A stretch of 64,000 bases of DNA from Patescibacteria group bacterium (GTDB lineage Bacteria; Patescibacteriota; Patescibacteriia; UBA10025; JAHIVO01): the NCBI GenBank assembly GCA_041660605.1, contig JBAZWB010000002.1, positions 239,940 through 303,939 on the forward strand, read 5' to 3'. Positions within the stretch are counted from its first letter, which is position 1, and the number at the start of each line of letters is the position of its first letter. The position numbers and the translations under genes were made by a program. Of the stretch, positions 11,205 to 63,406 are shown piece after piece. Under the pieces are notes generated by a model. It did no database searches. It was not told the DNA's origin and worked only from the letters and a program-made list of their open reading frames with translations.

Positions 11205-11361
11205 TACATACCTCTCTTGTTTGAATTGTGAAAAATTTACTGTTTCTGTCTTTATTATGTTTATATTACTTTAACTAATGAGTGCCACGCTGTCAAACAG
11301 CAAAAACCACCAATACAAAAAATCCCTACTCGTTGTACGGAGTGGTATGGATGTATTTCTT

Positions 11362-11640
11362 TTATCAGTGGGCGCAGATGCCCCGCACCATCTCGTTTCA
11401 CTCGAGGTGCGGGATTTCGTCCCCTTCGACTTCGCTCAGGGTCCTCAAGACTCTATTCGTTTTTATCAAAACAAAAATCATCCCCCCACTTTACTTGTCC
11501 CCCGTAGCCCGAATGTAATGGGGGCGAAGGGGGATAAGAGTGGTGCTCTAACTCCCGACCCCGCATGCGGGGTCGAGGATCCCCGAAGTTGTCGAAATCA
11601 TAGATTTCGACAACTTCGGGACAACTGAGTCCCAATGCTC
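11362..11640 (-). pseudogene. Scrambled or disrupted copy of tRNA-Ile(UAU) (att-site scar)
   Basis: Exact repeats of the tRNA 3' end (CAGTGGGCGCAGATG) and D/anticodon-arm segment (ATAAGAGTGGTGCTCTAAC). They are separated by GC-rich inserts. Confidence 0.5.
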
Positions 11641-11706
11641 CGGTCGGAACTATGTATCTAGCCGCTACAAAAATTAAACAGACGACAAATATATTTCTTT
11701 TATCAG

Positions 11707-11780
11707 TGGGCGCAGATGGATTTGAACCATCGACCCCCACTTTATAAGAGTGGTGCTCTAACCAACTGAGCTATGCGCCC
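11707..11780 (-). tRNA. tRNA-Ile, anticodon UAU
   Basis: Cloverleaf: acceptor GGGCGCA/TGCGCCC, anticodon stem CCACT/AGTGG with loop CTTATAA, T-arm GATGG-TTCAAAT-CCATC. Confidence 0.7.
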
Positions 11781-45251: not shown

Positions 45252-45489
45252 ACATTATACCAATAATTGGTCGAAATAAAGGCTAATTTAACACTAAAAT
45301 ATAAGGAGAAACGCCTAGTGGGGATATAAAAACTAGCAAAAAGTTATCAAATAAAACATTTGATGTCCCGCTAAGCCGGGATTTTTTATCTCCTATATCG
45401 ACCAGTCATTGAGAACTTTAACAATCAGAAAGTGATAAGAAGAAACGTCAATTTCTTTTTGAAAGTTTTTTAAAACTTTCATTTTTTTC

Positions 45490-46987
<1,498 letters not shown>

Positions 46988-47290
46988 AAGGAGAACTTAA
47001 TTTCCTTTCGGGGAAATTATTGTAGGTCGATGATCAGATTTTATTATCTGATTTTGAAATAATTTTTGACGTTTCTTTCTTATCACCTTTTGGTTGTTAA
47101 ATAATATATACAAATCTACAGCCCAGTAAAATCATGAGTTTGATTTTTACCAAGATATTTAGTACAATATTGACAAACAGGCTGTAGTTTTTTTATTTAA
47201 TAAACAATATACAGGGGCGACTAGCTTCCACCTCCGTCCGCCTGGGGCGGACTTCGGCGGACACGCAGATGGTTATTAAAGCCCAGTGGT

Positions 47291-47367
47291 GGGCGACTAG
47301 CTCAGATGGTTAGAGCGCGTCACTGATAATGACGAGGTCTCAGGTTCGATTCCTGAGTCGCCCACCA
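47291..47367 (+). tRNA. tRNA-Ile (GAU) with encoded CCA
   Basis: Acceptor GGGCGAC/GTCGCCC, anticodon loop CTGATAA, T-arm GGTTCGATTCC. Confidence 0.85.
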
Positions 47368-47573
47368 CTGGGGTCTATAAAGCTTGCCTACCCCTCAGAG
47401 TTGAACAAAACAAGGCGAGCAGGGTTTAATGTCAGGTTCCCCCGCCACAATAAATTAAATGAACTAAAGTGGAGCGGGGTCCGCCTCCCATCGGGCCTGA
47501 GAGGCCTCAGGGCCTCGAACGGCTGGCGGAGATTCCTGAGTCGCCCATTTGAAAAAAACAATTCGCTCCAATA

Positions 47574-47938: not shown

Positions 47939-48010
47939 GCCGAGGTAGCTCAGTGGTAGAGCGAAGGACTGAAAATCCTTGCGTCGCCAGTCCGATTCTG
48001 GCCCTCGGCA
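47939..48010 (+). tRNA. tRNA-Phe (GAA)
   Basis: Acceptor GCCGAGG/CCTCGGC, anticodon loop CTGAAAA, T-arm GCCAG-TCCGATT-CTGGC. Confidence 0.85.
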
Positions 48011-48035
48011 TTTGAGAATAATTTCGTGATTAAAA

Positions 48036-48190
48036 AATGCAGCTCAGTGGGCCGAAGCCACGAGTGAAGCAAACTGCTTTGCTTCACGAGGAGCTGAGGC
48101 GGGCGAGATGATACGGGAACCGCCATCGAGCCCCGGGAGAGCGAAGGACTGAAAATCCTTGCGTCGCCAGTCCGATTCTGGCTCTCGGCA
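48036..48190 (+). pseudogene. Disrupted second copy of tRNA-Phe with an 85-nt hairpin insert in the D region
   Basis: 48129–48190 reproduces the 3' two-thirds of tRNA-Phe with 1 mismatch. The 5' part (GCAGCTCAGTGG) is separated by a GC hairpin insert. Confidence 0.5.
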
Positions 48191-48497
48191 TAAGTGAAGC
48201 ATTAATAACCCAAACTGAAAATTTTACCCCGTACTTGACGCGAAGCGGCATAGTGCGGGGCCTTGCGTCGCCAGCATGCCCCACGAAGTTGAACGTAGCG
48301 AAACGTAGCGGGGGGGAGACCCGCCCCGCTGACTAGCGGGGTTCTTGAGAACAAATAATAAATCAAATGACGAAATCCCGCCGCATGGCGGGATGGCCCT
48401 CGACATCTTCAGGGGCTTGCTTTTGTTGTGGGATAAACTATACTATACTGAAACTATATTAGATAAACACTAAACTTGAGTATATATTTCCCCTTAT

Positions 48498-50455: not shown

Positions 50456-50754
50456 CGGGGTGTAGTTCAGTTGGCTAGAACGCTCGCTTCTTGCCCCGCC
50501 CCAGGTACAGGATTGCGCTCTTAATAAAAAATTATAGAGAAATATATTCAGGTCGGGGTGTAGTTCAGTTGGCTAGAACGCTCGCTTTGGGAGCGAGAGG
50601 TCCGCGGTTCGAGTCCGCGCACCCCGACCTGAATATGTTTTTAAAACCCTGGTGGCGGGGTGAAGGAGCGAGAGGTCCCCGGTTTCCCGCCACAAATATT
50701 TAATCTAATGTAGGCGGGACCCCGCCGAATGGCGGTGGCGAGTCCCTACCTGCC
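50456..50754 (+). pseudogene. Outer, disrupted tRNA-Pro copy enclosing the intact gene
   Basis: 5' half (50456–50491) and 3' half (GGAGCGAGAGGTCC ... CGCGCACCCCGACC at about 50651–50754) of tRNA-Pro. The intact tRNA and GC hairpins lie between them. Confidence 0.45.
50554..50627 (+). tRNA. tRNA-Pro (UGG)
   Basis: Acceptor CGGGGTG/CACCCCG, anticodon loop TTTGGGA, T-arm CGCGG-TTCGAGT-CCGCG. Confidence 0.85.
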
Positions 50755-50797
50755 AGTAGGCAGTCGCGCACCCCGACCACTCAATAAAACCAATAGT

Positions 50798-51222: not shown

Positions 51223-51400
51223 ATAAACACGCGCGGGTATCGTATAACGGTATTACCTCAGCTTTCTCCCGAAAAATAAGGAGCGAAGCGACTATATTTT
51301 TCGGGATCCTCGCAACAAGATGGGCTTGTTCCACCCTCCTCATCGTTGCGGGACAAGCTGATGACAGGGGTTCTGCGCCATAGGTACACCCGCCTTTGGC
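51223..51400 (+). pseudogene. Disrupted copy of tRNA-Gly(UCC) with an 88-nt insert in the anticodon loop and a diverged T-arm
   Basis: 5' part identical to the intact gene through CCTCAGCTTTC. Then an insert, then AAGCTGATGACAGGGGTTC. Confidence 0.5.
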
Positions 51401-51455
51401 GGGGAACTCATTAAATAAAAAATTTATATAGTTAATTCCCATAGAGCGGGTATCG

Positions 51456-51519
51456 TATAACGGTATTACCTCAGCTTTCCAAGCTGATGACAGGGGTTCG
51501 ACTCCCCTTACCCGCTCCA
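51456..51519 (+). tRNA. tRNA-Gly (UCC) with encoded CCA
   Basis: Acceptor GCGGGTA/TACCCGC, anticodon loop TTTCCAA, T-arm AGGGG-TTCGACT-CCCCT. Confidence 0.85.
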
Positions 51520-51636
51520 TGGGAATTAAAACTTAAAAGCATCCTTACCCGCTCCAATATCAAACTTTCCGATTTTTTTGGCGGAATGCTATTCTGAAAT
51601 ATATTATAAAAATTTAAAATCTGATATAATCCATAT

Positions 51637-52251
51637 ATGTCAGACAAAATTTTGTTAAATAAAGAAATACATATATTTACCGAAAACGATTTGCCATGCT
51701 TAATTACTTATGCTGAAAAAACAGGAGGTTCACATTTCAGTATAACTATGGTGGTAGACTTATTTTTGCATGGTTCAAAAATTTTATTTCTTACAGCATA
51801 TCCAATGGCGAAAGAAAATTTTTTAGAACAGATTGAAATCGATCATTCAAAAATTGCCCTTGTTAATTCCCCAGGCGATTTAGAAAAAGCAAAAGATTCC
51901 CAAGTCATTATTTTAGAGAGCGGAAATGAAAATTTGTTCTTTGATGTAGTAAAAACACTTCCTGATTTGCAAGAAAGGGTTGTCTTGATTAAAAATATGG
52001 AAGTATTTACTCAAGCTGTTTTTGATGTTTGTATAAGTATGAAAAAAATTATTTTATCTGGAAATATTGATACATGTATCGATAAAGAGAGAATTAGTAA
52101 AAAATATTTTAAAACAATAATTGCTTTTTCTAAACCAGATATTTTGTTACCGATAGAAATCCCAGTATTAGAAAAATATGTTGGTTATTTATCAAATAAA
52201 GACGAGAGCGGTAATGTAATTGTTCAAAAAATTCAGAAATATGACAGATAA
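51637..52251 (+). CDS. Hypothetical protein (islet cargo)
   Basis: 204-aa ORF in the AT-rich islet. Confidence 0.45.
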   Translation: MSDKILLNKEIHIFTENDLPCLITYAEKTGGSHFSITMVVDLFLHGSKILFLTAYPMAKENFLEQIEIDHSKIALVNSPGDLEKAKDSQVIILESGNENLFFDVVKTLPDLQERVVLIKNMEVFTQAVFDVCISMKKIILSGNIDTCIDKERISKKYFKTIIAFSKPDILLPIEIPVLEKYVGYLSNKDESGNVIVQKIQKYDR

Positions 52252-52687
52252 AAAATACATGGCTCTTGCAATACTTGAAGCAGAAAAAGGTAAAAAATTA
52301 GGTAATTTACCTTTTGGTGCTGTTTTAGTTAAAAATGCTGATATTATTGGTTCTGCTCATGCAGAAGATATTACTTCAACAGATGTATCTGCTCATGCAG
52401 AACTTCAAGCAATCCAACAAGCATGCAAAAATTTAAAAACAAGCAATTTAAAAGAATGTGTACTCTATACTACAAATGAACCTTGTGCCATGTGTGCAGG
52501 TGCTATTCTTCAGTCAGGTATTTCTAAAATTGTGATTGGAGTTATTCGTGGAGATATTCCCAATAGGTTTCAACCGAAAAAAATTGGAATTGATGAATTG
52601 ATTGAAAATTACAATTATAAGCCAGAAATCATAAGAGGGGTTTTGAAAAGTGAAGTTATTGAATTATTTAAAAATGGCAAACTTTGA
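52241..52687 (+). CDS. CMP/dCMP-type zinc-dependent deaminase (TadA/guanine deaminase-like)
   Basis: HAE...PCAMCAGA zinc-binding motifs. Confidence 0.65.
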   Translation: MTDKKYMALAILEAEKGKKLGNLPFGAVLVKNADIIGSAHAEDITSTDVSAHAELQAIQQACKNLKTSNLKECVLYTTNEPCAMCAGAILQSGISKIVIGVIRGDIPNRFQPKKIGIDELIENYNYKPEIIRGVLKSEVIELFKNGKL

Positions 52688-53039
52688 CCCAAAAACATAT
52701 CACATTATCGGAATGAGTCCCGGTAATAATTATTTCAAAGATGAAGAAGTTCATTATCTTTTGAAAACTGTCGTTGAGCGATATTCGGCGGCGGAAAAGC
52801 GAGGGCGGGAACTTAATAATATTTCAAGATCCTCACCCCGTCATTCGACGAGGTCCGCCTTTTGCGGTGACTCTCGAGATCAATTAATATAATCAAATGA
52901 CGAGATCCCGCCCTGGTGGCGGGACCCTTACCCGCTCCAACGGAAAATCAATTTAATAAGTTATCCCCAGTCAATCTCTTGACCGTTTTTTGATTATTAT
53001 TTATTATTATATCGTATTACGATATAGTATATATTTCCT

Positions 53040-56183: not shown

Positions 56184-56344
56184 TAATGCATAATCAAAAG
56201 CCTCGATTTATAAAGTCGGGGTTTTTGGAATGCTAAATACTTGATAAATACAGGCAATTCTGTTATGATTTGAATATGTAGATTTAAAATCTGCTGTTTT
56301 ATTAACGAAACCCAGGACGAAAATATAATATAATTATTGTCTTG

Positions 56345-56460
56345 GCCAGGTAGCCCCGCCCGCCTTGCTCCGCAACGCGGAGCGGGCGTGGCAAGCCCCC
56401 GCCAGTAGGCGGGGTAAAATCCAGGCAGTGGTCTGTCCCGCCAAGGGGCGGGACCCCGCA
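56345..56460 (+). pseudogene. Disrupted copy of tRNA-Cys with GC hairpin inserts in the D loop and anticodon loop
   Basis: GGCCAGGTAGCC, a 68-nt insert, AGGCAGTGGTCTG, an insert. All collinear with the intact tRNA-Cys. Confidence 0.5.
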
Positions 56461-56523
56461 ATACATTAGAAAAAATATAAGAGTGCGGGACAAAACCAAA
56501 ATATACGGCACCCTGAAAGTAAT

Positions 56524-56598
56524 GGCCAGGTAGCCAAGTAGTAAGGCAGTGGTCTGCAAAACCACTATTCACGGGTGCAATTCCCGTCCTGGCCTCCA
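56524..56598 (+). tRNA. tRNA-Cys (GCA) with encoded CCA
   Basis: Acceptor GGCCAGG/CCTGGCC, anticodon loop CTGCAAA, T-arm ACGGG-TGCAATT-CCCGT. Confidence 0.85.
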
Positions 56599-56713: not shown

Positions 56714-58252
56714 TCATAGCCACGCGCGGGGGTAGTTCAGTGGTAGAACGCTTCCTTGCCAAGGAAGAGGTCGCGGGTTCAAGTCCCGTTCCCCGCTCCA
56801 ATCGGAAAATTTGAATTTTTCAGCGGCGCAAAGCCACTGATTAGATAATGAAATTAGGGCTTTCCCGCCAACGAGGCGGAAGTTCGAGCCAATTTTTTGT
56901 ATAAAATTTCTTTTTGCTTCTAAATTTTCTTGTTTTGATGTAAAAGGGGCTTGGTGAGCGTCTAATATCCATTTTCTGAAGAGTTCGAGCCGAGCGTCGC
57001 CCTTATTCTTAAAACTATCCAGTAATTCCTTAATTTCAACCAGCCGGTTGACGATTTTTTGTTTGGCTTTGTCAAATACCTCTTTAGAAATTCCTTGGTC
57101 TAATCTCTCATCAAGCAGTAGCAATAGTTTTTCCTCTAATTTAGCTTGCTCGCCTTTTAACGCCTGAATTTCCTCGCCATGCTTAGTTGTTGCTTCTTTG
57201 ATTTCCCCGTCAACCTTAATTAACATTTTGTCTTTCCAATCATCAGGCAGGGCGACGCTCTCAATGGTTTTATTGATCTGGCTGACCAAGTGCCTTTCTT
57301 CAATGAACTTCTGCGAGCAAACCACATTTTTCTTGGTACAGCGATAATAAACATATTTCAACCCTGAAGGTTTTTTCTTTCTTTCGGCAGTTACCATGCG
57401 TCCGCACTCACCACAGGTGAATACGCCCCGGAATGCGAAAGGCAGAAGGTCTTTTTTAACCCTGGTCTTTCGTTTGGCCGAGTGAACCTTCTGCACTTCG
57501 TCAAATAACTGCTTGGTAATTATCGGCTGGTGACTGCCCTGGTACATTTCGCCCTTGTGCAAAAATACGCCGTAATAAAACGGATTGGTCAGCATGTCTA
57601 CTAGCTTGGAAATGACGATTTGCTTATTTGTCCTACGGCTCACCAAGCCCAGCGAAAGCGACAGCTTCTGCAGTGAATAAATCGTGTGATTGCCCCCGGC
57701 ATACGCCTCAAAGAGCTTTTTGACTATCTGCCAGCGCTCCGGGTCTTTGATGATGGTGTGGTGCCGTAATTCGTTCAGATAGCCGACAGGCGCGAGCGCT
57801 GGCCATTCGCCCCGGCGGAGCTTTTGGCGTATGCCGCGTTTGATATTTTCGCATAAGTTATCAATGTAGTATTTGCTCTGGCCAAAAGCGATATTAAGCA
57901 TGAATTTTCCCTGTGGCGTGGCATCAAACCAAAATGTAGGAAATTTTAAACCGCCAATCTTGCCAGTATCCACCATAAAAATGATTTTTCCGCCGTCAAT
58001 GCTGTTTCTGGCCAATCTGTCCGGATGCCACGCCAAAATGCCCATAGGGCCATTTTCTTCTATGCGCTTGATCATTTTATTAAAAAGAGGACGACCGGGC
58101 ACTTTGGCCGTCTTGCTTTCTATGTATTCGTCAATTACTTCTAAATTTTCCTTAATCGCAAATTCTCTTAATTCCGTTATTTGCGATTCAATGGATAAAA
58201 CCTGCCGGTCGTCCTCGTCAGTTGATTTCCTGGCGTAGATTACATATTTCAT
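56714..58252 (-). CDS. Large serine recombinase (resolvase/invertase N-domain, recombinase domain, zinc ribbon)
   Basis: N-terminal YARKSTDEDDRQVLSIESQ with the catalytic Ser. Downstream recombinase domain with CGECG...YYRC zinc ribbon. The 3'-terminal roughly 170 nt runs through IR-A and antisense tRNA-Gly, so the true C-terminus is uncertain. Confidence 0.85.
   Translation of the reverse strand: MKYVIYARKSTDEDDRQVLSIESQITELREFAIKENLEVIDEYIESKTAKVPGRPLFNKMIKRIEENGPMGILAWHPDRLARNSIDGGKIIFMVDTGKIGGLKFPTFWFDATPQGKFMLNIAFGQSKYYIDNLCENIKRGIRQKLRRGEWPALAPVGYLNELRHHTIIKDPERWQIVKKLFEAYAGGNHTIYSLQKLSLSLGLVSRRTNKQIVISKLVDMLTNPFYYGVFLHKGEMYQGSHQPIITKQLFDEVQKVHSAKRKTRVKKDLLPFAFRGVFTCGECGRMVTAERKKKPSGLKYVYYRCTKKNVVCSQKFIEERHLVSQINKTIESVALPDDWKDKMLIKVDGEIKEATTKHGEEIQALKGEQAKLEEKLLLLLDERLDQGISKEVFDKAKQKIVNRLVEIKELLDSFKNKGDARLELFRKWILDAHQAPFTSKQENLEAKRNFIQKIGSNFRLVGGKALISLSNQWLCAAEKFKFSDWSGERDLNPRPLPWQGSVLPLNYPRAWL
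56726..56800 (+). tRNA. tRNA-Gly (GCC) with encoded CCA; integration target
   Basis: Acceptor GCGGGGG/TCCCCGC, anticodon loop TTGCCAA, T-arm GCGGG-TTCAAGT-CCCGT. Confidence 0.85.
56795..56886. repeat. IR-A, left copy (92 bp, perfect)
   Basis: Reverse complement equals 58329–58420. Confidence 0.9.
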
Positions 58253-58328
58253 AGTTGTCGCTTTCGCTTAATTCTTATCAGTCAAAATTGGCTACCCCGC
58301 GGGAGCGGGGTGTTCCGCAATGCGGAGC

Positions 58329-58420
58329 CGAACTTCCGCCTCGTTGGCGGGAAAGCCCTAATTTCATTATCTAATCAGTGGCTTTGCGCCGCTGAAAAAT
58401 TCAAATTTTCCGATTGGAGC
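58329..58420. repeat. IR-A, right copy (92 bp)
   Basis: Perfect inverted match to 56795–56886. Confidence 0.9.
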
Positions 58421-58560
58421 TGCTTTTACCGAAAAGTTCGGACTTTCTTTCTATGAATTCAGGCGGGCGGAAGGGGGGTCTGGGGGGAATTCCGCCCGCC
58501 TGCCCTCTCCGCAAAAAAATTAATTAAATGGGCTTTTAAAAAAACAAGGAGATTTTTCGT
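58415..58560. repeat. IR-B, left copy (146 bp)
   Basis: Reverse complement matches 63473–63618 with about 5 mismatches. Shares the TGGAGC core with IR-A. Confidence 0.85.
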
Positions 58561-58652
58561 AATCCCGCAGAAGCGGGATGCGCCGCGTTAAGGATAGCCC
58601 TTGACCCTCCCACCCGTTCGCAGGCATTTACTCCCTGAAATCAGGATATTCT

Positions 58653-58680
58653 AATTTTGAATATTCATATTTTGAATATA
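58653..58680 (+). promoter_or_regulatory. Candidate operator: two direct TTTTGAATAT repeats with an internal GAATATTC palindrome upstream of the XRE gene
   Basis: TTTTGAATAT at 58655–58664 and 58670–58679. Confidence 0.4.
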
Positions 58681-58690
58681 TCATAACCTT

Positions 58691-58909
58691 ATGGATAAGA
58701 CAATATATCTGAATAAATACAAACGAATTGTCGAAAAGCTTAAAAGTGCCCGTCTTGAAGCAGGATTAACGCAAAAACAAATAGCAGACAGGCTAAAGGT
58801 GCCACAATCGTATATATCCAAAGTTGAAGCAGGGGACCAAAGAATCGATATTATTGAGCTAAAAGCATTTGCCGATCTTTATAAGAAATCGATCACTTAC
58901 TTTATTTAA
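58691..58909 (+). CDS. XRE/Cro-type helix-turn-helix transcriptional regulator
   Basis: LTQKQIADRLKVPQSYISKVEAG HTH_3 signature. Confidence 0.75.
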   Translation: MDKTIYLNKYKRIVEKLKSARLEAGLTQKQIADRLKVPQSYISKVEAGDQRIDIIELKAFADLYKKSITYFI

Positions 58910-59082
58910 TTTCAATCAATAAAAATGGGCGTTTCTATACGCTTTTTTTATTTATCCACAGGGTAAGTGGGTTGACGGTTTATTTTATATGTGATAAGGT
59001 GTAAAGGAATCAATATTCTAGGATATTAATACGATAAATAATCACATAACTTATACCTTAAGAATTAACCTTAAAAACACAT

Positions 59083-59319
59083 ATGAAACCTAAACCGCCT
59101 ACAAATGAGACAAAAAGAGATAGATTCAAGAGACTTGCTGAATACAGGACAAATGAAGTATTGAGTAAATTAAAAATACTTGGTAATTGCTCTAATCAAC
59201 AAGCATATGACTATACTGAAGAGGATATACGAAAAATTTTTGATTCAATTGAAAAAACGACACGAGCCGTAAAATCAAAGTTTCAATTAACGCCTAGGGA
59301 TAAAGAATTTAAATTCTAA
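59083..59319 (+). CDS. Small hypothetical protein
   Basis: 78-aa basic ORF directly upstream of the ATPase gene. Confidence 0.4.
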   Translation: MKPKPPTNETKRDRFKRLAEYRTNEVLSKLKILGNCSNQQAYDYTEEDIRKIFDSIEKTTRAVKSKFQLTPRDKEFKF

Positions 59320-59341
59320 GTGTCTTTTTAAAGTTTATTTT

Positions 59342-61087
59342 ATGTCGTTAAAATTACATATATCTCCAAGAATAATTCCAAGCATTGCCAGTCTATATAA
59401 TGACGTCAATAGAATTTTCATGGAATATATTGACAATTCCATCGACAGTGCTGAAAAATTTTTTACTAATGATATTGATCAGTATTTAAAACCAATTGAG
59501 ATTGTTATTAAAATCTCTGGTGAAAAATTTAGGGACGGAAAAGTAACAATAAGTGATAACTGTTTCGGTATTACAAATTTTGGAAAGGTAGTAGAGAGCA
59601 TAGGTAATTCAGATAAAAAGGCGGATTTTACCACAAACGGACAATTTGGCTATGGCATCTACTCGTATATGGCAGCATGTGAAAAATTAGAAATTACTTC
59701 AAAGCTTGATGATCAAGAAAAGGCACAATACCTGCCCATTGAAAGAAAACAATTCGACACAGATCGCCAAGAAAATGTAAAAATTCCTGATCCAAAAATT
59801 GTAAATTTTAAGATGCAGTCTGGAACAATGATAAGTCTGTCCGGTTTTGAAAAACATTCATGGAAAGAAATAAACGCAGAAGAATTAAAAAATGAGATCG
59901 AAAAACACTTCGAGTTATTATTAGCCAGAAAAAATCTTTTTGTTAAAGTTATTGACGCTAAAATGAACGAACATATATGCAAGCCGTATAATTATTCTCA
60001 ACATGAAGGTGAGGTATATGACGACAATATTAACTCGGTATGTTATAAAAAGGGAATTATATCCCCAACAACTGTCAAATTTAATTTAAAAAAACCAATC
60101 CATATTTATCTTAAACTAACAAAGGGCAAATCAATCAATAAACCACCAATTTTTGTTGCCAAAGGTAGACGGGTGGGCGAGATAAAAGACGTCAGGTCAT
60201 TTAAATCAACCCATAAAAGCGATCTATGGGCACACCCAAATATAACAGGCTATATTGATTTAAATGATTTCTTGGATCCAACTATCGCAAGAAATGATTT
60301 TAAAAATACCGATAAATCAAAAGCGTTATTCGCTACTGTTAACAAATTAGAGGAAATTATTTTAGACGAGATTATAAGGGCTAACAAAGAAGCAGAGGAA
60401 CGACACTATAAAGAGCTAGAGGACAGACTTAACCAAATACTTTCTAAACTTGCAAGAATTGATGCCATGAATTATCGGACTGCATTTTTAACCGGAAATA
60501 ACATTAATTTACAACAAGGCGGTACAGGACAAATAATTGAAGGTAAACGCGGATCAAAAGACCGTGGTGGCGACCCCACAAATGAAAATAATGATCACCC
60601 ATTGGGTGAGAATGAGGGTTTTGGAAAAGGAATTGGAGGATCAAAGGGAAATATCCCTGGGGGTGAGAATGGCGACAATGCTTCGAACAAGGAAGCTGAC
60701 AACCCTTTTGAGGACACCGGATTTAAAGGAGGCGAAAAGAAAAAAAGCGGCTTTAATATAAGGATTGTTGACAGTGATCCCGATATTGATCAAGAAACTA
60801 ATAAACCAATTAGATCTTTACTTGTTGGTGACGAAATAAGAATCTTCAAAAAACATCCGGACTTCGAGGAACGGGTTGGGGAGTCTAGAAAAAAAGAAAA
60901 ACGAATCACAGAGCGTTTAGTCACATACATCGCTGGCGAAATAACAGTTCACTATAAAGACAAATATTTTACCCGATATGGTCAACCAGATTATAATAAA
61001 AAAATGTTTTCAGACTTAGTTGAATTTATTTATTCAATTGAAACATCGCTTGCTGATTTGGTTGGCAGGAACTTGTCTGACTATTAA
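59342..61087 (+). CDS. GHKL-superfamily (HSP90/MORC-like, HATPase_c) ATPase with a long C-terminal region containing a G/N/D-rich linker
   Basis: Bergerat-fold motifs: N box EYIDNSIDSA, G1 box ISDNCFGIT, G2 box GQFGYGIYS. Confidence 0.7.
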   Translation: MSLKLHISPRIIPSIASLYNDVNRIFMEYIDNSIDSAEKFFTNDIDQYLKPIEIVIKISGEKFRDGKVTISDNCFGITNFGKVVESIGNSDKKADFTTNGQFGYGIYSYMAACEKLEITSKLDDQEKAQYLPIERKQFDTDRQENVKIPDPKIVNFKMQSGTMISLSGFEKHSWKEINAEELKNEIEKHFELLLARKNLFVKVIDAKMNEHICKPYNYSQHEGEVYDDNINSVCYKKGIISPTTVKFNLKKPIHIYLKLTKGKSINKPPIFVAKGRRVGEIKDVRSFKSTHKSDLWAHPNITGYIDLNDFLDPTIARNDFKNTDKSKALFATVNKLEEIILDEIIRANKEAEERHYKELEDRLNQILSKLARIDAMNYRTAFLTGNNINLQQGGTGQIIEGKRGSKDRGGDPTNENNDHPLGENEGFGKGIGGSKGNIPGGENGDNASNKEADNPFEDTGFKGGEKKKSGFNIRIVDSDPDIDQETNKPIRSLLVGDEIRIFKKHPDFEERVGESRKKEKRITERLVTYIAGEITVHYKDKYFTRYGQPDYNKKMFSDLVEFIYSIETSLADLVGRNLSDY

Positions 61088-61092
61088 ACTAT

Positions 61093-61962
61093 ATGAACGT
61101 ACAACAATTAATTCAACAAATAACCCCCCTTTACAATAACTACAAAAGGAGAAAGAACAATATTTCTGGGACAGCGGCTCTCGAAATAATGTGGGATATA
61201 GGTGATTTATTAAAAACAAGAATTGATACCGACAGTATTGCTCCACACACATTATACCGAAATATTTATGGCAAATCGGAAGGGAAAGACAACATCACCC
61301 AAAAAAGTTATATAACAAGAGAATTTTTAAGTCGCTCTTACCGAATAAGAAAGTACTTTAGCAATAAAGATCAAATCCAGCAACAGCTACCGAGCCTGAA
61401 AAAATTTATTTTTTTCCGAGAAGCAATGCCGTTTTTTGATAATAAAAAATATAAACTCTCTGGCGATGAAGGAAAAAAATTGATTAATCTATTAAACAGT
61501 AACCTAACGGATAAACAAATACTTTCTTCAATTAAGGTTTTGCAAAAACAAAAAATTAACATACGGAATCCCCGAAGTCAAAAATTACATGAGCTTGAAA
61601 ACGAAAAAGTAATTTTCATCAATTTTTATAATTACATTTATTCATTTTTTAAACATAAAGATTACCGAGCAGCTCAACAACAGTTAGACAATAATCGTAT
61701 TATGCCTAATTATATTAAAGATTTGGCCAGGAATACTAGCTCAATGTCTCAAGATGGGCTAAAAAACTATAACCTACAGATACCACTGATGATCGGAGTA
61801 ATTTGGCAGCAATTCTCTGAAATGGTTAATAACCTCAATAAAGATAGTGATCCTAAAAAACGAAGAAGGTTTAGGAGGCTTATATCACCCGAAAGAATTG
61901 TAAGGCTCGCGGACATGTTATTCGCTCTCACTTCTGAAAATAATTACAAAAACTTTAAATAA
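61093..61962 (+). CDS. Hypothetical protein (operon partner 2)
   Basis: 6-bp gap from the ATPase gene. 289 aa, no recognised motif. Confidence 0.5.
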   Translation: MNVQQLIQQITPLYNNYKRRKNNISGTAALEIMWDIGDLLKTRIDTDSIAPHTLYRNIYGKSEGKDNITQKSYITREFLSRSYRIRKYFSNKDQIQQQLPSLKKFIFFREAMPFFDNKKYKLSGDEGKKLINLLNSNLTDKQILSSIKVLQKQKINIRNPRSQKLHELENEKVIFINFYNYIYSFFKHKDYRAAQQQLDNNRIMPNYIKDLARNTSSMSQDGLKNYNLQIPLMIGVIWQQFSEMVNNLNKDSDPKKRRRFRRLISPERIVRLADMLFALTSENNYKNFK

Positions 61963-61976
61963 TTAATAATAATCAT

Positions 61977-62549
61977 ATGCAAGAAAAAATCGATAGCGAG
62001 TTAAACGCAATTAACAACATTATCAAATCTCTTGAATCTCTGGATGAGGCGGCCAAAAAGCGCGTTCTTAGTTACGTATCAGAAAGGTTGGGTCTAAATA
62101 CTCTAGGCAAGCCCGGATTTTCTAATGAAGTCAAACCCTCTCAAATTAATCAAAATGCTCCAACTGGACAGGATCAAATAATAAATCTGGGGTTAAAAGA
62201 TAGTGTGGTTGATATTAGGACCCTAAAAGATCAAAAATCGCCAAAGACAGCTACACAAATGGCGGCCTTAGTAGCTTTTTATTTACAAGAATATTCGCCT
62301 GAAAATGAACGCAAAGAAATAATAAAGCCACAGGACATAACAAAATATTTTAAGCAAGCGAATTATCCCTTACCCAAAGGAAGACCAATAGTTACACTAG
62401 TAAATGCAAAAAATGCTGGCTACCTCGAATCAGTCGGCGAAAGCGCGTTCAAATTAAACCCGGTTGGCTATAATTTAATTGCCCATCAACTTTCTGAAGA
62501 AAAAAGTAGCGGTAATTCAAAAAGGCAACACAGGGCAAAGAAAAAATAA
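61977..62549 (+). CDS. Hypothetical protein (operon partner 3)
   Basis: 190 aa with a basic C-terminus. Confidence 0.5.
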   Translation: MQEKIDSELNAINNIIKSLESLDEAAKKRVLSYVSERLGLNTLGKPGFSNEVKPSQINQNAPTGQDQIINLGLKDSVVDIRTLKDQKSPKTATQMAALVAFYLQEYSPENERKEIIKPQDITKYFKQANYPLPKGRPIVTLVNAKNAGYLESVGESAFKLNPVGYNLIAHQLSEEKSSGNSKRQHRAKKK

Positions 62550-62551
62550 AT

Positions 62552-63406
62552 ATGGTTTCGTCGATTGCGAAAATCCAAGAAGTACCATTTGACTCCTTTA
62601 AACCCAAGCTAGAAATAATAGAAAAAAAGGTAAAAGGAGTAAAATTTAAACAGATCAATTCAAAGTCTCTTAGACAGGAGATCAGGCAAACGGTACAAGA
62701 TTATTTTAGAAATCTGCGTCTTGAACTGATACAGTACAATTTTTCATTAGACGCATTAGATAGCAATATGCAGGAGCTGTTAAAATTAACAAATGGTAGA
62801 TCCTTGAAAAAAATATATACTACTAAAATAAAAAGTTCTAAAAAGATAATGGAAAACCTGGAAATCGAGCGAGAATACAATTTTAGTAACCCACAGAATA
62901 GAACAAAGTCCCTGCCACTTGATGTTGAATTAAAAATTATTCAGACTTTAAATAATCTTATACCAGCAATTGGGAACTCCTATAAACAGATAATTTCTGA
63001 TTTAAATGACGATAATAGAATCTCTTTTCGTGGAACCACAGCTGAACTCCGTGAAGTTTTAAGAGAGGTTTTAGACAATCTTGCTCCAGACCAAGAAGTC
63101 AAACAACAGAAAGATTTTAAACTCGAGCCGAACACTCATAAACCAACAATGAAACAAAAAGTACGTTTTATTTTAAAGGCTAGAGGACAAAACAAAACTG
63201 AGATGAATACAACTGAAAACACTACCGCCTTAGTTGATGGATCTCAAGAAATGATAGCCACGATTGCAAGATCAACTTATGAAAAAGGATCTGTTGGCAC
63301 TCATACGGATAAAGGATCCCCAAAAGCTAGCTGTAAGCAATATAAAATGTATGTTGATAGTGTTTTATGTGAATTATTGGAAATACATAATTTGCCGATG
63401 AAGTAA
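62552..63406 (+). CDS. Hypothetical protein (operon partner 4)
   Basis: 284 aa. Starts 3 bp after the previous stop. Confidence 0.5.
   Translation: MVSSIAKIQEVPFDSFKPKLEIIEKKVKGVKFKQINSKSLRQEIRQTVQDYFRNLRLELIQYNFSLDALDSNMQELLKLTNGRSLKKIYTTKIKSSKKIMENLEIEREYNFSNPQNRTKSLPLDVELKIIQTLNNLIPAIGNSYKQIISDLNDDNRISFRGTTAELREVLREVLDNLAPDQEVKQQKDFKLEPNTHKPTMKQKVRFILKARGQNKTEMNTTENTTALVDGSQEMIATIARSTYEKGSVGTHTDKGSPKASCKQYKMYVDSVLCELLEIHNLPMK

Follow-up and report, generated by a model that had tools for sequence, protein, structure and literature searches.

The combination of a tRNA gene (tDNA) and a displaced fragment of that tDNA is the signature used by Islander to recognize genomic islands (PMC4383910). 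Three sublocations within tRNA genes serve as integration sites of tyrosine integrases, i.e., the anticodon loop, the T loop (T-stem-loop) and the 3' end (PMC8371274), and the island examples in a paper on tRNA gene fragments span 9-23 kb (PMC9897764). Here, we describe a far smaller case, an islet of ~1.4 kb with low guanine-plus-cytosine (GC) content beside tRNA-Gly(UCC), in a 64-kb stretch of DNA (hereafter the window) that is part of the 960,449-bp contig k141_729649 of the ENA metagenome assembly ERZ27249449. The NCBI source name of a 204-aa protein encoded in the islet is 'Patescibacteria group bacterium', and Patescibacteria are organisms with tiny genomes and poorly known mobile elements. 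On balance, we somewhat favor the view that this is a decayed, recombinase-less genomic islet located at the 3' end of tRNA-Gly(UCC), an integration hot spot. It is an ordinary degenerate tRNA-linked islet of a known kind and of modest interest in itself; it represents a small, clear case of gene flow at a tRNA hot spot between Patescibacteria that differ in base composition, and it points to a conserved, uncharacterized mobile gene pair coding for a predicted RecA-fold protein without the Walker-A lysine and a TadA-like deaminase. Comparison loci and contigs from other assemblies are designated L002-L033 (L002 and L004 are Logan contigs from sample SRR18595301), and counts of repeats and motifs were tested against shuffled sequence over the 64-kb window.

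Repeats, junctions and foreign DNA at tRNA-Gly(UCC)

The locus contains the following features:

51446-51519, plus strand: functional tRNA-Gly(UCC) (ARAGORN; Rfam tRNA, 63.6 bits)
51505-51519, plus strand: repeat copy 1, the last 15 nt of the functional tRNA-Gly(UCC)
51520-51529, plus strand: native 3' trailer TGGGAATTAA, paired with the leader TTAATTCCCA (51432-51441)
51543-51557, plus strand: repeat copy 2, CCTTACCCGCTCCAA (tRNA positions 61-74 and a further A), probably the junction at the left of the foreign block
51557-52785, plus strand: low-GC foreign block of about 1.23 kb (GC 0.291), with nucleotide matches to low-GC Patescibacteria gene pairs
51637-52251, plus strand: gene 1, 204 aa, predicted RecA-like/ASCE P-loop fold (AlphaFold2 and Foldseek)
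52241-52687, plus strand: gene 2, 148-aa zinc deaminase (PF00383, 8e-28), whose start overlaps the end of gene 1 (ATGA)
52674-52785, plus strand: 5' stub (~37 codons) of a cyclodipeptide synthase (CDPS) gene, whose open reading frame (ORF) reads to a stop at 52892 via unrelated GC-rich DNA
52786-52924, plus strand: GC-rich hairpin mini-element of ~139 nt ('T-type'), hairpin at 52907-52923
52925-52940, plus strand: repeat copy 3 (tRNA positions 60-74 and a further A), bracketing the islet on the right

A first, sequence-only reading of the window had proposed foreign DNA at the 3' end of tRNA-Gly(UCC) between direct repeats of that end, and this picture held. The 15-nt sequence CCCTTACCCGCTCCA was found at 51505-51519 and 52925-52939, as then described, and the 14-mer CCTTACCCGCTCCA occurred exactly three times in 64 kb (51506, 51543 and 52926) compared to 0.01 copies expected from shuffles. 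However, the left junction is not the tRNA itself but the additional copy at 51543-51557, which is real, although its 14 nt occupy 51543-51556 and not 51545-51557 as first given. Copies 2 and 3 share one base beyond CCA, which extends their identity to the 15 nt of CCTTACCCGCTCCAA (51543-51557 and 52926-52940). Pairing of leader and trailer lengthens the acceptor stem of tRNA-Gly(UCC) to 21 bp (an inverted repeat of 21 nt, 95% complementary). Because the trailer at 51520-51529 pairs with the leader at 51432-51441, as trailers also do at tRNA-Ile, tRNA-Pro, tRNA-Phe and tRNA-Ile(UAU), it is native DNA; therefore, the 3' end of the functional tRNA-Gly(UCC) is not a junction, and the real left junction is copy 2. 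The AT-rich DNA starts directly after this copy (51556/51557), 37 nt past the functional tRNA. Copy 2 is a free fragment located 23 nt past the functional tRNA-Gly(UCC), outside the tRNA gene, and is colinear with two upstream tRNA-Gly(UCC) pieces (tRNA positions 1-34 at 51233-51266 and 35-54 at 51354-51373); it looks as if the complete tRNA unit (51374-51542) is nested in an older tRNA-Gly(UCC) copy. The repeat fragments begin at tRNA position 60/61, on the 3' strand of the T stem, which corresponds to a canonical sublocation (PMC8371274).

The islet had also been described as more AT-rich than its surroundings, and quantitative analysis agreed. Among 1.2-kb stretches of the window (mean GC 0.440, sd 0.046), 51557-52771 was the lowest at 0.291 (z = -3.2), and the GC content at third codon positions (GC3) of genes 1 and 2 was 0.20 and 0.14, respectively, versus 0.36-0.55 in eight neighboring genes. 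The final ~140-170 nt left of the right repeat are not AT-rich (52772-52939, GC 0.53). We detected the gene pair at 70-80% nucleotide identity in L025, L026, L027, L028-L031 and L032. Similarity to these loci was confined to 51602/51636-52669/52675, i.e., to the two genes, and the neighbors of the pair differed each time (at least 5 different contexts). In the 32-37%-GC genomes (L025-L028 and L032), GC3 of the pair was that of its own neighbors. Best matches of the islet proteins were 78-81% identical, compared to at most 59% for the pyruvate kinase of the host (GTDB representatives and JGI metagenomes). Because a pair with 70-80% nucleotide identity matches host composition in low-GC Patescibacteria, horizontal acquisition is well supported: the two genes very probably entered this 44%-GC genome from a low-GC Patescibacterium.

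The right end of the block lies within the CDPS gene. Residues 6-40 of the stub showed 61-69% identity to the N-termini of proteins that match PF16715 at 1e-13 to 1e-29, and weak direct matches of the stub to TIGR04539 and PF16715 (profile positions about 20-47) were also obtained. The sequence IGMSPGNxYFKD is invariant between the stub and CDPS proteins, and homology ends at residue 38-40, at about 52785, well short of a full-length CDPS domain (about 220 positions). Thus, the stub resembles cyclodipeptide synthases (PF16715) in the N-terminal IIGMSPGNxYFKD region but, unlike true CDPS, keeps ~37 of ~230 codons and is a pseudogene stub. A search for an intact version with the 44-aa N-terminus returned no candidates, and CDPS proteins were found by a later full HMMER scan. 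Since the gene is cut after ~37 codons, DNA was lost at the right side by a later deletion. In sample SRR18595301, the end of contig L002 and the start of L004 break here with a 30-nt overlap (52742-52771), ~15 nt before the end of CDPS homology, which hints at a second path (variant or repeat) in the assembly graph.

The nearest available relatives of the host provided further information on the site. In both L014 (Parcubacteria GW2011_GWA2_48_9) and L033, an MGMT-like gene is located directly upstream of tRNA-Gly(UCC), as in the window, whereas the downstream region contains a split glyoxalase-like gene and a gene for a 450-aa membrane protein and has no 204-aa gene, deaminase or PadR. Thus, these orthologous regions do not carry the same genes at the tRNA with ordinary composition and without a repeat, an arrangement that the sequence-only reading had named as evidence against an islet. 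In L014 and L033, two displaced 3' fragments (tRNA positions 54-71 and 60-71) lie behind their parent tRNA-Gly(UCC), and the end of this tRNA is therefore a recurrent target in the lineage. Displaced tRNA fragments near their parents were also observed elsewhere in Patescibacteria, including Gly(UCC) twice, Pro, Asp twice and a Leu 5' piece:

L014, 2830-2841 and 3003-3020, minus strand
L014, 10231-10244
L021, 4978-4996 and 5307-5325
L026, 10223-10244, minus strand

Small tRNA-linked islets or scars seem to be common in Patescibacteria. A search for the empty site that used pyruvate kinase as an anchor in GTDB species representatives and JGI metagenomes returned only relatives with 47-59% identity, too distant to provide a true empty site, and the 3' half of the tRNA had no match in viral contigs.

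When compared with Islander-type islands, the locus shows an intact tRNA gene at one end, a direct fragment of the same tRNA at the other (from the 3' strand of the T stem, a canonical break point), direct repeats of the 3' end and foreign cargo, and the hot spot is also used in relatives L014 and L033. Unlike such islands, it has no integrase gene on board, is ~1.4 kb instead of 9-23 kb long (PMC9897764) and is bracketed by a 15-nt repeat; in addition, the left repeat is free of the functional tRNA, the right arm is a resident mini-element and one cargo gene is truncated. Starting from the observed repeats, compositional break, truncation and gene identities with their relatives, we infer the following course of events. 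A circular element would have recombined with tRNA-Gly(UCC) at the T-loop/3'-end sublocation, and the 14-15-nt tRNA-end copies at 51543-51557 and 52925-52940 would be the footprint of that recombination. The block would have brought an operon with its own promoter and the start of a CDPS gene. Later events may then have deleted the rest of the element, including any recombinase; at the right end, a resident mini-element with a GC-rich hairpin would have been left, and to the left the functional tRNA unit would have been re-inserted or built anew. Integration at the tRNA by site-specific recombination is a plausible proposal, and the sequence of steps and the disappearance of a recombinase are likewise proposed.

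Gene pair of the islet

The ORFs listed by the sequence-only reading, a hypothetical protein, a deaminase with HAE and PCAMCAGA motifs and a truncated ORF running into GC-rich hairpins, were all recovered. The first of them, gene 1, had no match in Pfam, NCBIfam or PADLOC, but at least 273 homologs were detected. The best 120 were 55-79% identical and about 198-204 aa long, and the source names among these 120 were all Patescibacteria (Pacebacteria, Komeilibacteria and Falkowbacteria) with the exception of one 'bacterium'. An AlphaFold2 model built on 34 homologs had a predicted local distance difference test (pLDDT) score of 94.8, and Foldseek returned weak matches (template modeling score, TM, about 0.5) to Hef, B204, EccC, KaiC, FlaH and DnaB; as modeled, the gene 1 product has a RecA-like/ASCE P-loop fold. 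An invariant GGSH motif is present where the Walker-A GK[ST] is expected, and the Walker-A lysine is missing. A TATAAT box (51625-51630), which is conserved in the homologs, ends 6 nt upstream of the ATG of gene 1, suggesting a leaderless transcript and an own promoter for the operon. Promoter and terminator scans gave counts no higher than in shuffles.

Homologs of gene 1 adjoin tRNA genes on the downstream side or occur in variable regions next to them in at least four contexts, with TATAAT 6-8 nt before the start codon: tRNA-Thr (L018/L021/L022/L027), the tRNA-Trp region (L012/L025), tRNA-Ala (L026) and tRNA-Gly (the window). No tRNA-end repeats were found downstream of the homolog in L021 and L027. 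One homolog, P0005 (200 aa), follows an intact tRNA-Thr in L018-L020 (L018, 1044-1116). In L017 (5934-5982), P0005 is preceded by positions 31-73 only of tRNA-Thr, with a tyrosine integrase further upstream. L017 (occupied) and L018-L020 (empty) thus represent two states of a polymorphic anticodon-loop island in a Pacebacteria-like genome. We considered the two contexts of P0005 as a sign of mobility of gene 1 and rejected this idea, as an integrase island had entered tRNA-Thr before a stationary gene. A phage or virus origin of gene 1 was also rejected, as no match was found in INPHARED phages or IMG/VR.

Gene 2 contains the catalytic HAE and PCAMCAGA (PCxxC) motifs, and at ~150 aa it resembles TadA, guanosine deaminase and guanine deaminase (COG0590, cytidine-deaminase fold). 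Its best sequence matches were TadA (7cph, 2b3j) and plant guanosine deaminase (7dbf), with 7cph and 7dbf as the best PDB matches. Unlike TadA, however, it scored below the TadA equivalog cut-off (NF008113, 82.6 bits versus 150 bits) and falls within a small clade from Patescibacteria whose genes are invariably preceded by a 199-204-aa gene. Identity within this close clade is 64-81%, and beyond it at most 44%. Judging from sequence relationships, gene 2 is a member of the TadA/guanosine/guanine/cytosine deaminase branch, and, judged by family membership, a role in the salvage of nucleosides or bases is the most plausible one. Enzymes of this kind are important to organisms unable to make nucleotides. 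The sequence-only reading had raised the question of a toxin/immunity pairing between the deaminase and the 204-aa protein, and we asked whether the two genes could form such a pair (either way), a polymorphic-toxin system or a defense cassette. The Pfam match to MafB19-deam (8e-28), a weak PADLOC match of gene 2 to dCTP deaminase and the location of both genes in a mobile islet agree with this proposal. On the other hand, PF00383 scores equally, and the 148-aa product of gene 2 stands alone, without a delivery, targeting or trafficking domain, and is of the TadA/guanosine-deaminase type, with TadA and deaminases of guanosine, guanine or cytosine as its nearest characterized relatives; the RecA-like partner, for its part, had no PADLOC match, and most of its homologs (at least 273) occur without a deaminase. 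A toxin or defense function is therefore highly unlikely.

Interrupted tRNA copies and hairpin elements

The tRNA genes of the window (ARAGORN, Rfam) are loosely clustered after a 16S rRNA gene (45484-46985) and include Ile, Phe, Pro, Gly(UCC), Cys and Gly(GCC). The 16S rRNA gene and tRNA-Ile(GAU) lie within 45484-47367, with no 23S or 5S rRNA in the remaining 17 kb, and the rRNA operon appears to be unlinked. Near six of the seven tRNA genes in the window we found, on the same strand, colinear pieces of the respective gene with 100% identity and with GC-rich hairpin inserts of 39-120 nt between them. These and related features are as follows:

11354-11780 (minus strand), 47215-47547, 47939-48405, 50456-50778, 51233-51556 and 56344-56598: tRNA genes with their pieces
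51233-51373, plus strand: disrupted older tRNA-Gly(UCC) copy, comprising tRNA positions 1-34, an 87-nt 'A-type' hairpin insert (51267-51353) and positions 35-54
52786-52924, 48275-48393 and 11381-11482 (minus strand): members of the T-type family
51432-51441/51520-51529, 47277-47290/47365-47377, 50540-50553/50630-50640, 47911-47928/48005-48022 and around 11706-11780: paired leaders and trailers

The intact gene was located between 5' and 3' pieces in four cases; tRNA-Cys had 5' pieces only and tRNA-Gly(GCC) had none. Break points fell in the D loop, the anticodon loop (34|35) and the T arm. Functional tRNA genes showed leader/trailer complementarity of ~10 nt, which extends the acceptor stem to 18-22 bp; such extension was not seen at tRNA-Gly of L014 or tRNA-Thr of L021. 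These shattered tRNA copies, genome-wide, are a stranger observation than the islet, whose wider value lies in this context, as nearly every tRNA gene in the window has beside it a colinear copy of itself that is interrupted by conserved hairpin inserts.

Two families could be distinguished among the inserts. The A-type family includes the 87-nt insert in tRNA-Gly(UCC) (51267-51353) and a 69-nt insert in tRNA-Ile(UAU) (11553-11621, minus strand), which have TCCCGAA...TCGGGGATCCTCG...CGGGA in common. The T-type family, which forms the right arm of the islet, has the 3' arm TCTYGAG...AATCAAATGACGARATCCCGCC-loop-GGCGGGA. This arm recurs 5' of a displaced 3' fragment of tRNA-Phe (48340-48405) and, in a diverged form, at tRNA-Ile(UAU) (~11420-11368, minus strand). 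A 22-nt motif of the arm was present only at 48361 and 52891 of the window, and GACGARATCCCGC occurred in three copies (0.18 expected), each 5' of a displaced 3' piece of a tRNA. Moreover, all five CCCGCC-N-GGCGGG hairpins in the window were beside tRNA fragments. An Rfam scan of the inserts and GC-rich flanks detected nothing but tRNAs, and the predicted RNA fold of the right arm was no better than that of shuffles (z = -1.0). In L028, an activated-sludge contig of otherwise 35% GC that contains the closest gene pair, ~230 nt of GC-rich DNA with many hairpins (1-230) lie upstream of the operon, reminiscent of the hairpin elements of the window.

The inserts are short, structured, have conserved ends and occur in the D loop, anticodon loop or T arm of several tRNAs, as is also the case for the mobile tRNA introns of Thermoproteales and for repetitive extragenic palindromes (REP) or miniature inverted-repeat transposable elements (MITEs). 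Unlike those, they occur in a bacterial host, and an intact gene lies beside the interrupted copies, which lack some tRNA positions; the comparison is no more than an analogy. One could imagine an undescribed system in which families of GC-rich hairpins, the A-type (TCCCGAA...TTCGGGRATCCTCG...GGGA) and the T-type (ending in ...GACGARATCCCGC-hairpin), insert specifically in the D loop, anticodon loop and T arm of tRNA genes, function being supplied by an intact tRNA cassette with a 10-bp leader/trailer stem extension inside or beside each shattered copy, and in which the operon of the islet is trapped cargo. The repeats around the islet would then be part of this system and not ordinary scars of integration. 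We identified no splicing or transposition machinery for the hairpin inserts and regard this explanation as doubtful; if true, it would represent a bacterial counterpart of the mobile archaeal tRNA introns or a tRNA-specific MITE family.

Competing origins and the serine recombinase element

Several observations weigh against integration at tRNA-Gly(UCC). The bracketing repeat is short (15 nt), and the DNA directly after the functional tRNA is native, so that integration must have involved a tRNA copy that is now fragmented, which requires extra events. The right edge of the AT-rich block is a gene truncation and not the end of an element. In addition, the right arm belongs to a resident mini-element family that is also found beside cargo-free displaced fragments of tRNA-Phe and tRNA-Ile(UAU); therefore, tRNA-end repeats alone do not prove that the AT-rich block integrated there, and the right repeat may predate the block. 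No empty site was found, as every assembly with the flanking PadR protein also had the 204-aa protein, the two occurring in the same six blocks, and the islet is fixed in the sampled populations. The three ORFs of the islet contain no recombinase domain, and tblastn of the 64-kb window with a tyrosine integrase and XerD detected no tyrosine recombinase; with a serine recombinase query included, only the serine recombinase at 57278-58267 was found. Thus, of the proposal that the islet 'has lost its recombinase', the absence held, whereas the loss is what we infer, the truncated gene showing only that DNA disappeared at the right. The absence of a recombinase, the right boundary inside a gene, the arm shared with the tRNA-Phe and tRNA-Ile(UAU) fragments, and the colinear, identical pieces with GC-rich inserts and without foreign cargo at six of seven tRNA genes would all be expected if tRNA-end repeats pre-existed as genome-wide litter and the AT-rich block landed between two of them by illegitimate or homology-facilitated recombination, without an att site, e.g., after natural DNA uptake. 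This is the main rival explanation, possible but rather unlikely in our view: the left edge of the AT-rich DNA lies within a few nt of copy 2 (51556/51557), the 15 nt common to copies 2 and 3 extend one base past CCA, and homologs of gene 1 occur in tRNA-adjacent variable regions of several other genomes. Integration at a tRNA gene also has a precedent in L017, where a tyrosine-integrase island displaced a 3' fragment of tRNA-Thr right before a gene 1 homolog (empty site in L018-L020).

A candidate enzyme for such integration is encoded 3.8 kb from the islet, and two features are relevant to it:

56714-58252, minus strand: 512-aa large serine recombinase (Resolvase, Recombinase and Zn_ribbon_recom domains)
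51560-51573, plus strand: motif TCAAACTTTCCGAT, overlapping the conserved upstream region of the operon (alignment with L028/L030)

It is conceivable that the islet was integrated, or is still mobile in trans, by a large serine recombinase like that at tRNA-Gly(GCC), acting on quasi-palindromic sites CCGCT-N6-7-TCAAAYTTTCCGAT-N-GG(A)GCGG that use the shared CCCGCTCCA end of tRNA-Gly. The islet and the recombinase element have in common this tRNA end, low-GC cargo and the TCAAAYTTTCCGAT motif (13/14 match): TCAAACTTTCCGAT matches the reverse complement of 56801-56814, abutting tRNA-Gly(GCC), at 13 of 14 positions, and was found only at 51560, 3 nt past copy 2, and in both 92-nt repeat arms of the recombinase region, abutting GCTCCA (0.13 expected; shuffle p < 0.0005). 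Furthermore, ACGGAAAAT after copy 3 resembles ATCGGAAAAT after tRNA-Gly(GCC) (8-nt match at the same offset, p about 0.03), and a 38%-identical serine recombinase occurs in a tRNA-Trp island of L012 whose far end is a gene 1 homolog. The resemblance of the two arms had been noticed in the sequence-only reading and is genuine, though inverted, as relative to the tRNA end the motif has opposite orientations at the two tRNA-Gly genes. The further suggestion that one recombinase family probably produced both islands is weak, since it is based on a single inverted 14-nt motif that is partly conserved upstream of the operon in L028; the TTTCCGAT...GGCGG part is conserved in L028/L030, overlaps a -35-like TTGGCG and may belong to the promoter region. 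Unlike the recombinase element, the islet has no recombinase and has a 15-nt direct repeat, and recombinase action on the islet sites is putative. Direct repeats of this length point rather to tyrosine integrases; serine integrases, whose crossover spans 2 nt, have no need of 15-nt repeats and usually leave none. Serine integrases have also been reported as not known to target tRNA genes, only tyrosine integrases being so known (PMC4383910). We consider an origin by serine recombination improbable. Finally, the two genes could be native and vertically inherited, with repeat and composition incidental, given that gene 1 homologs are widespread in Patescibacteria, follow tRNA genes natively in L018-L024 and L027, and that the islet was present in every assembly of this species found. 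However, GC3 of 0.14-0.20 versus 0.36-0.55 is not attributable to amino-acid content, nucleotide identity to low-GC loci reaches 80% whereas pyruvate kinase does not exceed 59% at the protein level, L014 and L033 lack these genes after the same tRNA, and three copies of the 14-mer are present where 0.01 is expected; vertical inheritance is very improbable and close to refuted.

The region of the serine recombinase has additional unusual features. Its gene reads ~87 nt into tRNA-Gly(GCC), located on the opposite strand, and is flanked by perfect 92-nt inverted repeats (56795-56886 and 58329-58420). The repeats hold the last ~30 codons of the recombinase, so inversion would swap its C-terminal tail. 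A serine recombinase gene that reads into a tRNA gene contrasts with the above statement on serine integrases (PMC4383910). To the right of the recombinase, the only other low-GC stretch of the window (58400-62650, GC 0.30-0.34) encodes a helix-turn-helix protein, a 581-aa HATPase_c_3 protein and a pP_pnuc_1 protein, and is probably the cargo of the serine recombinase element.

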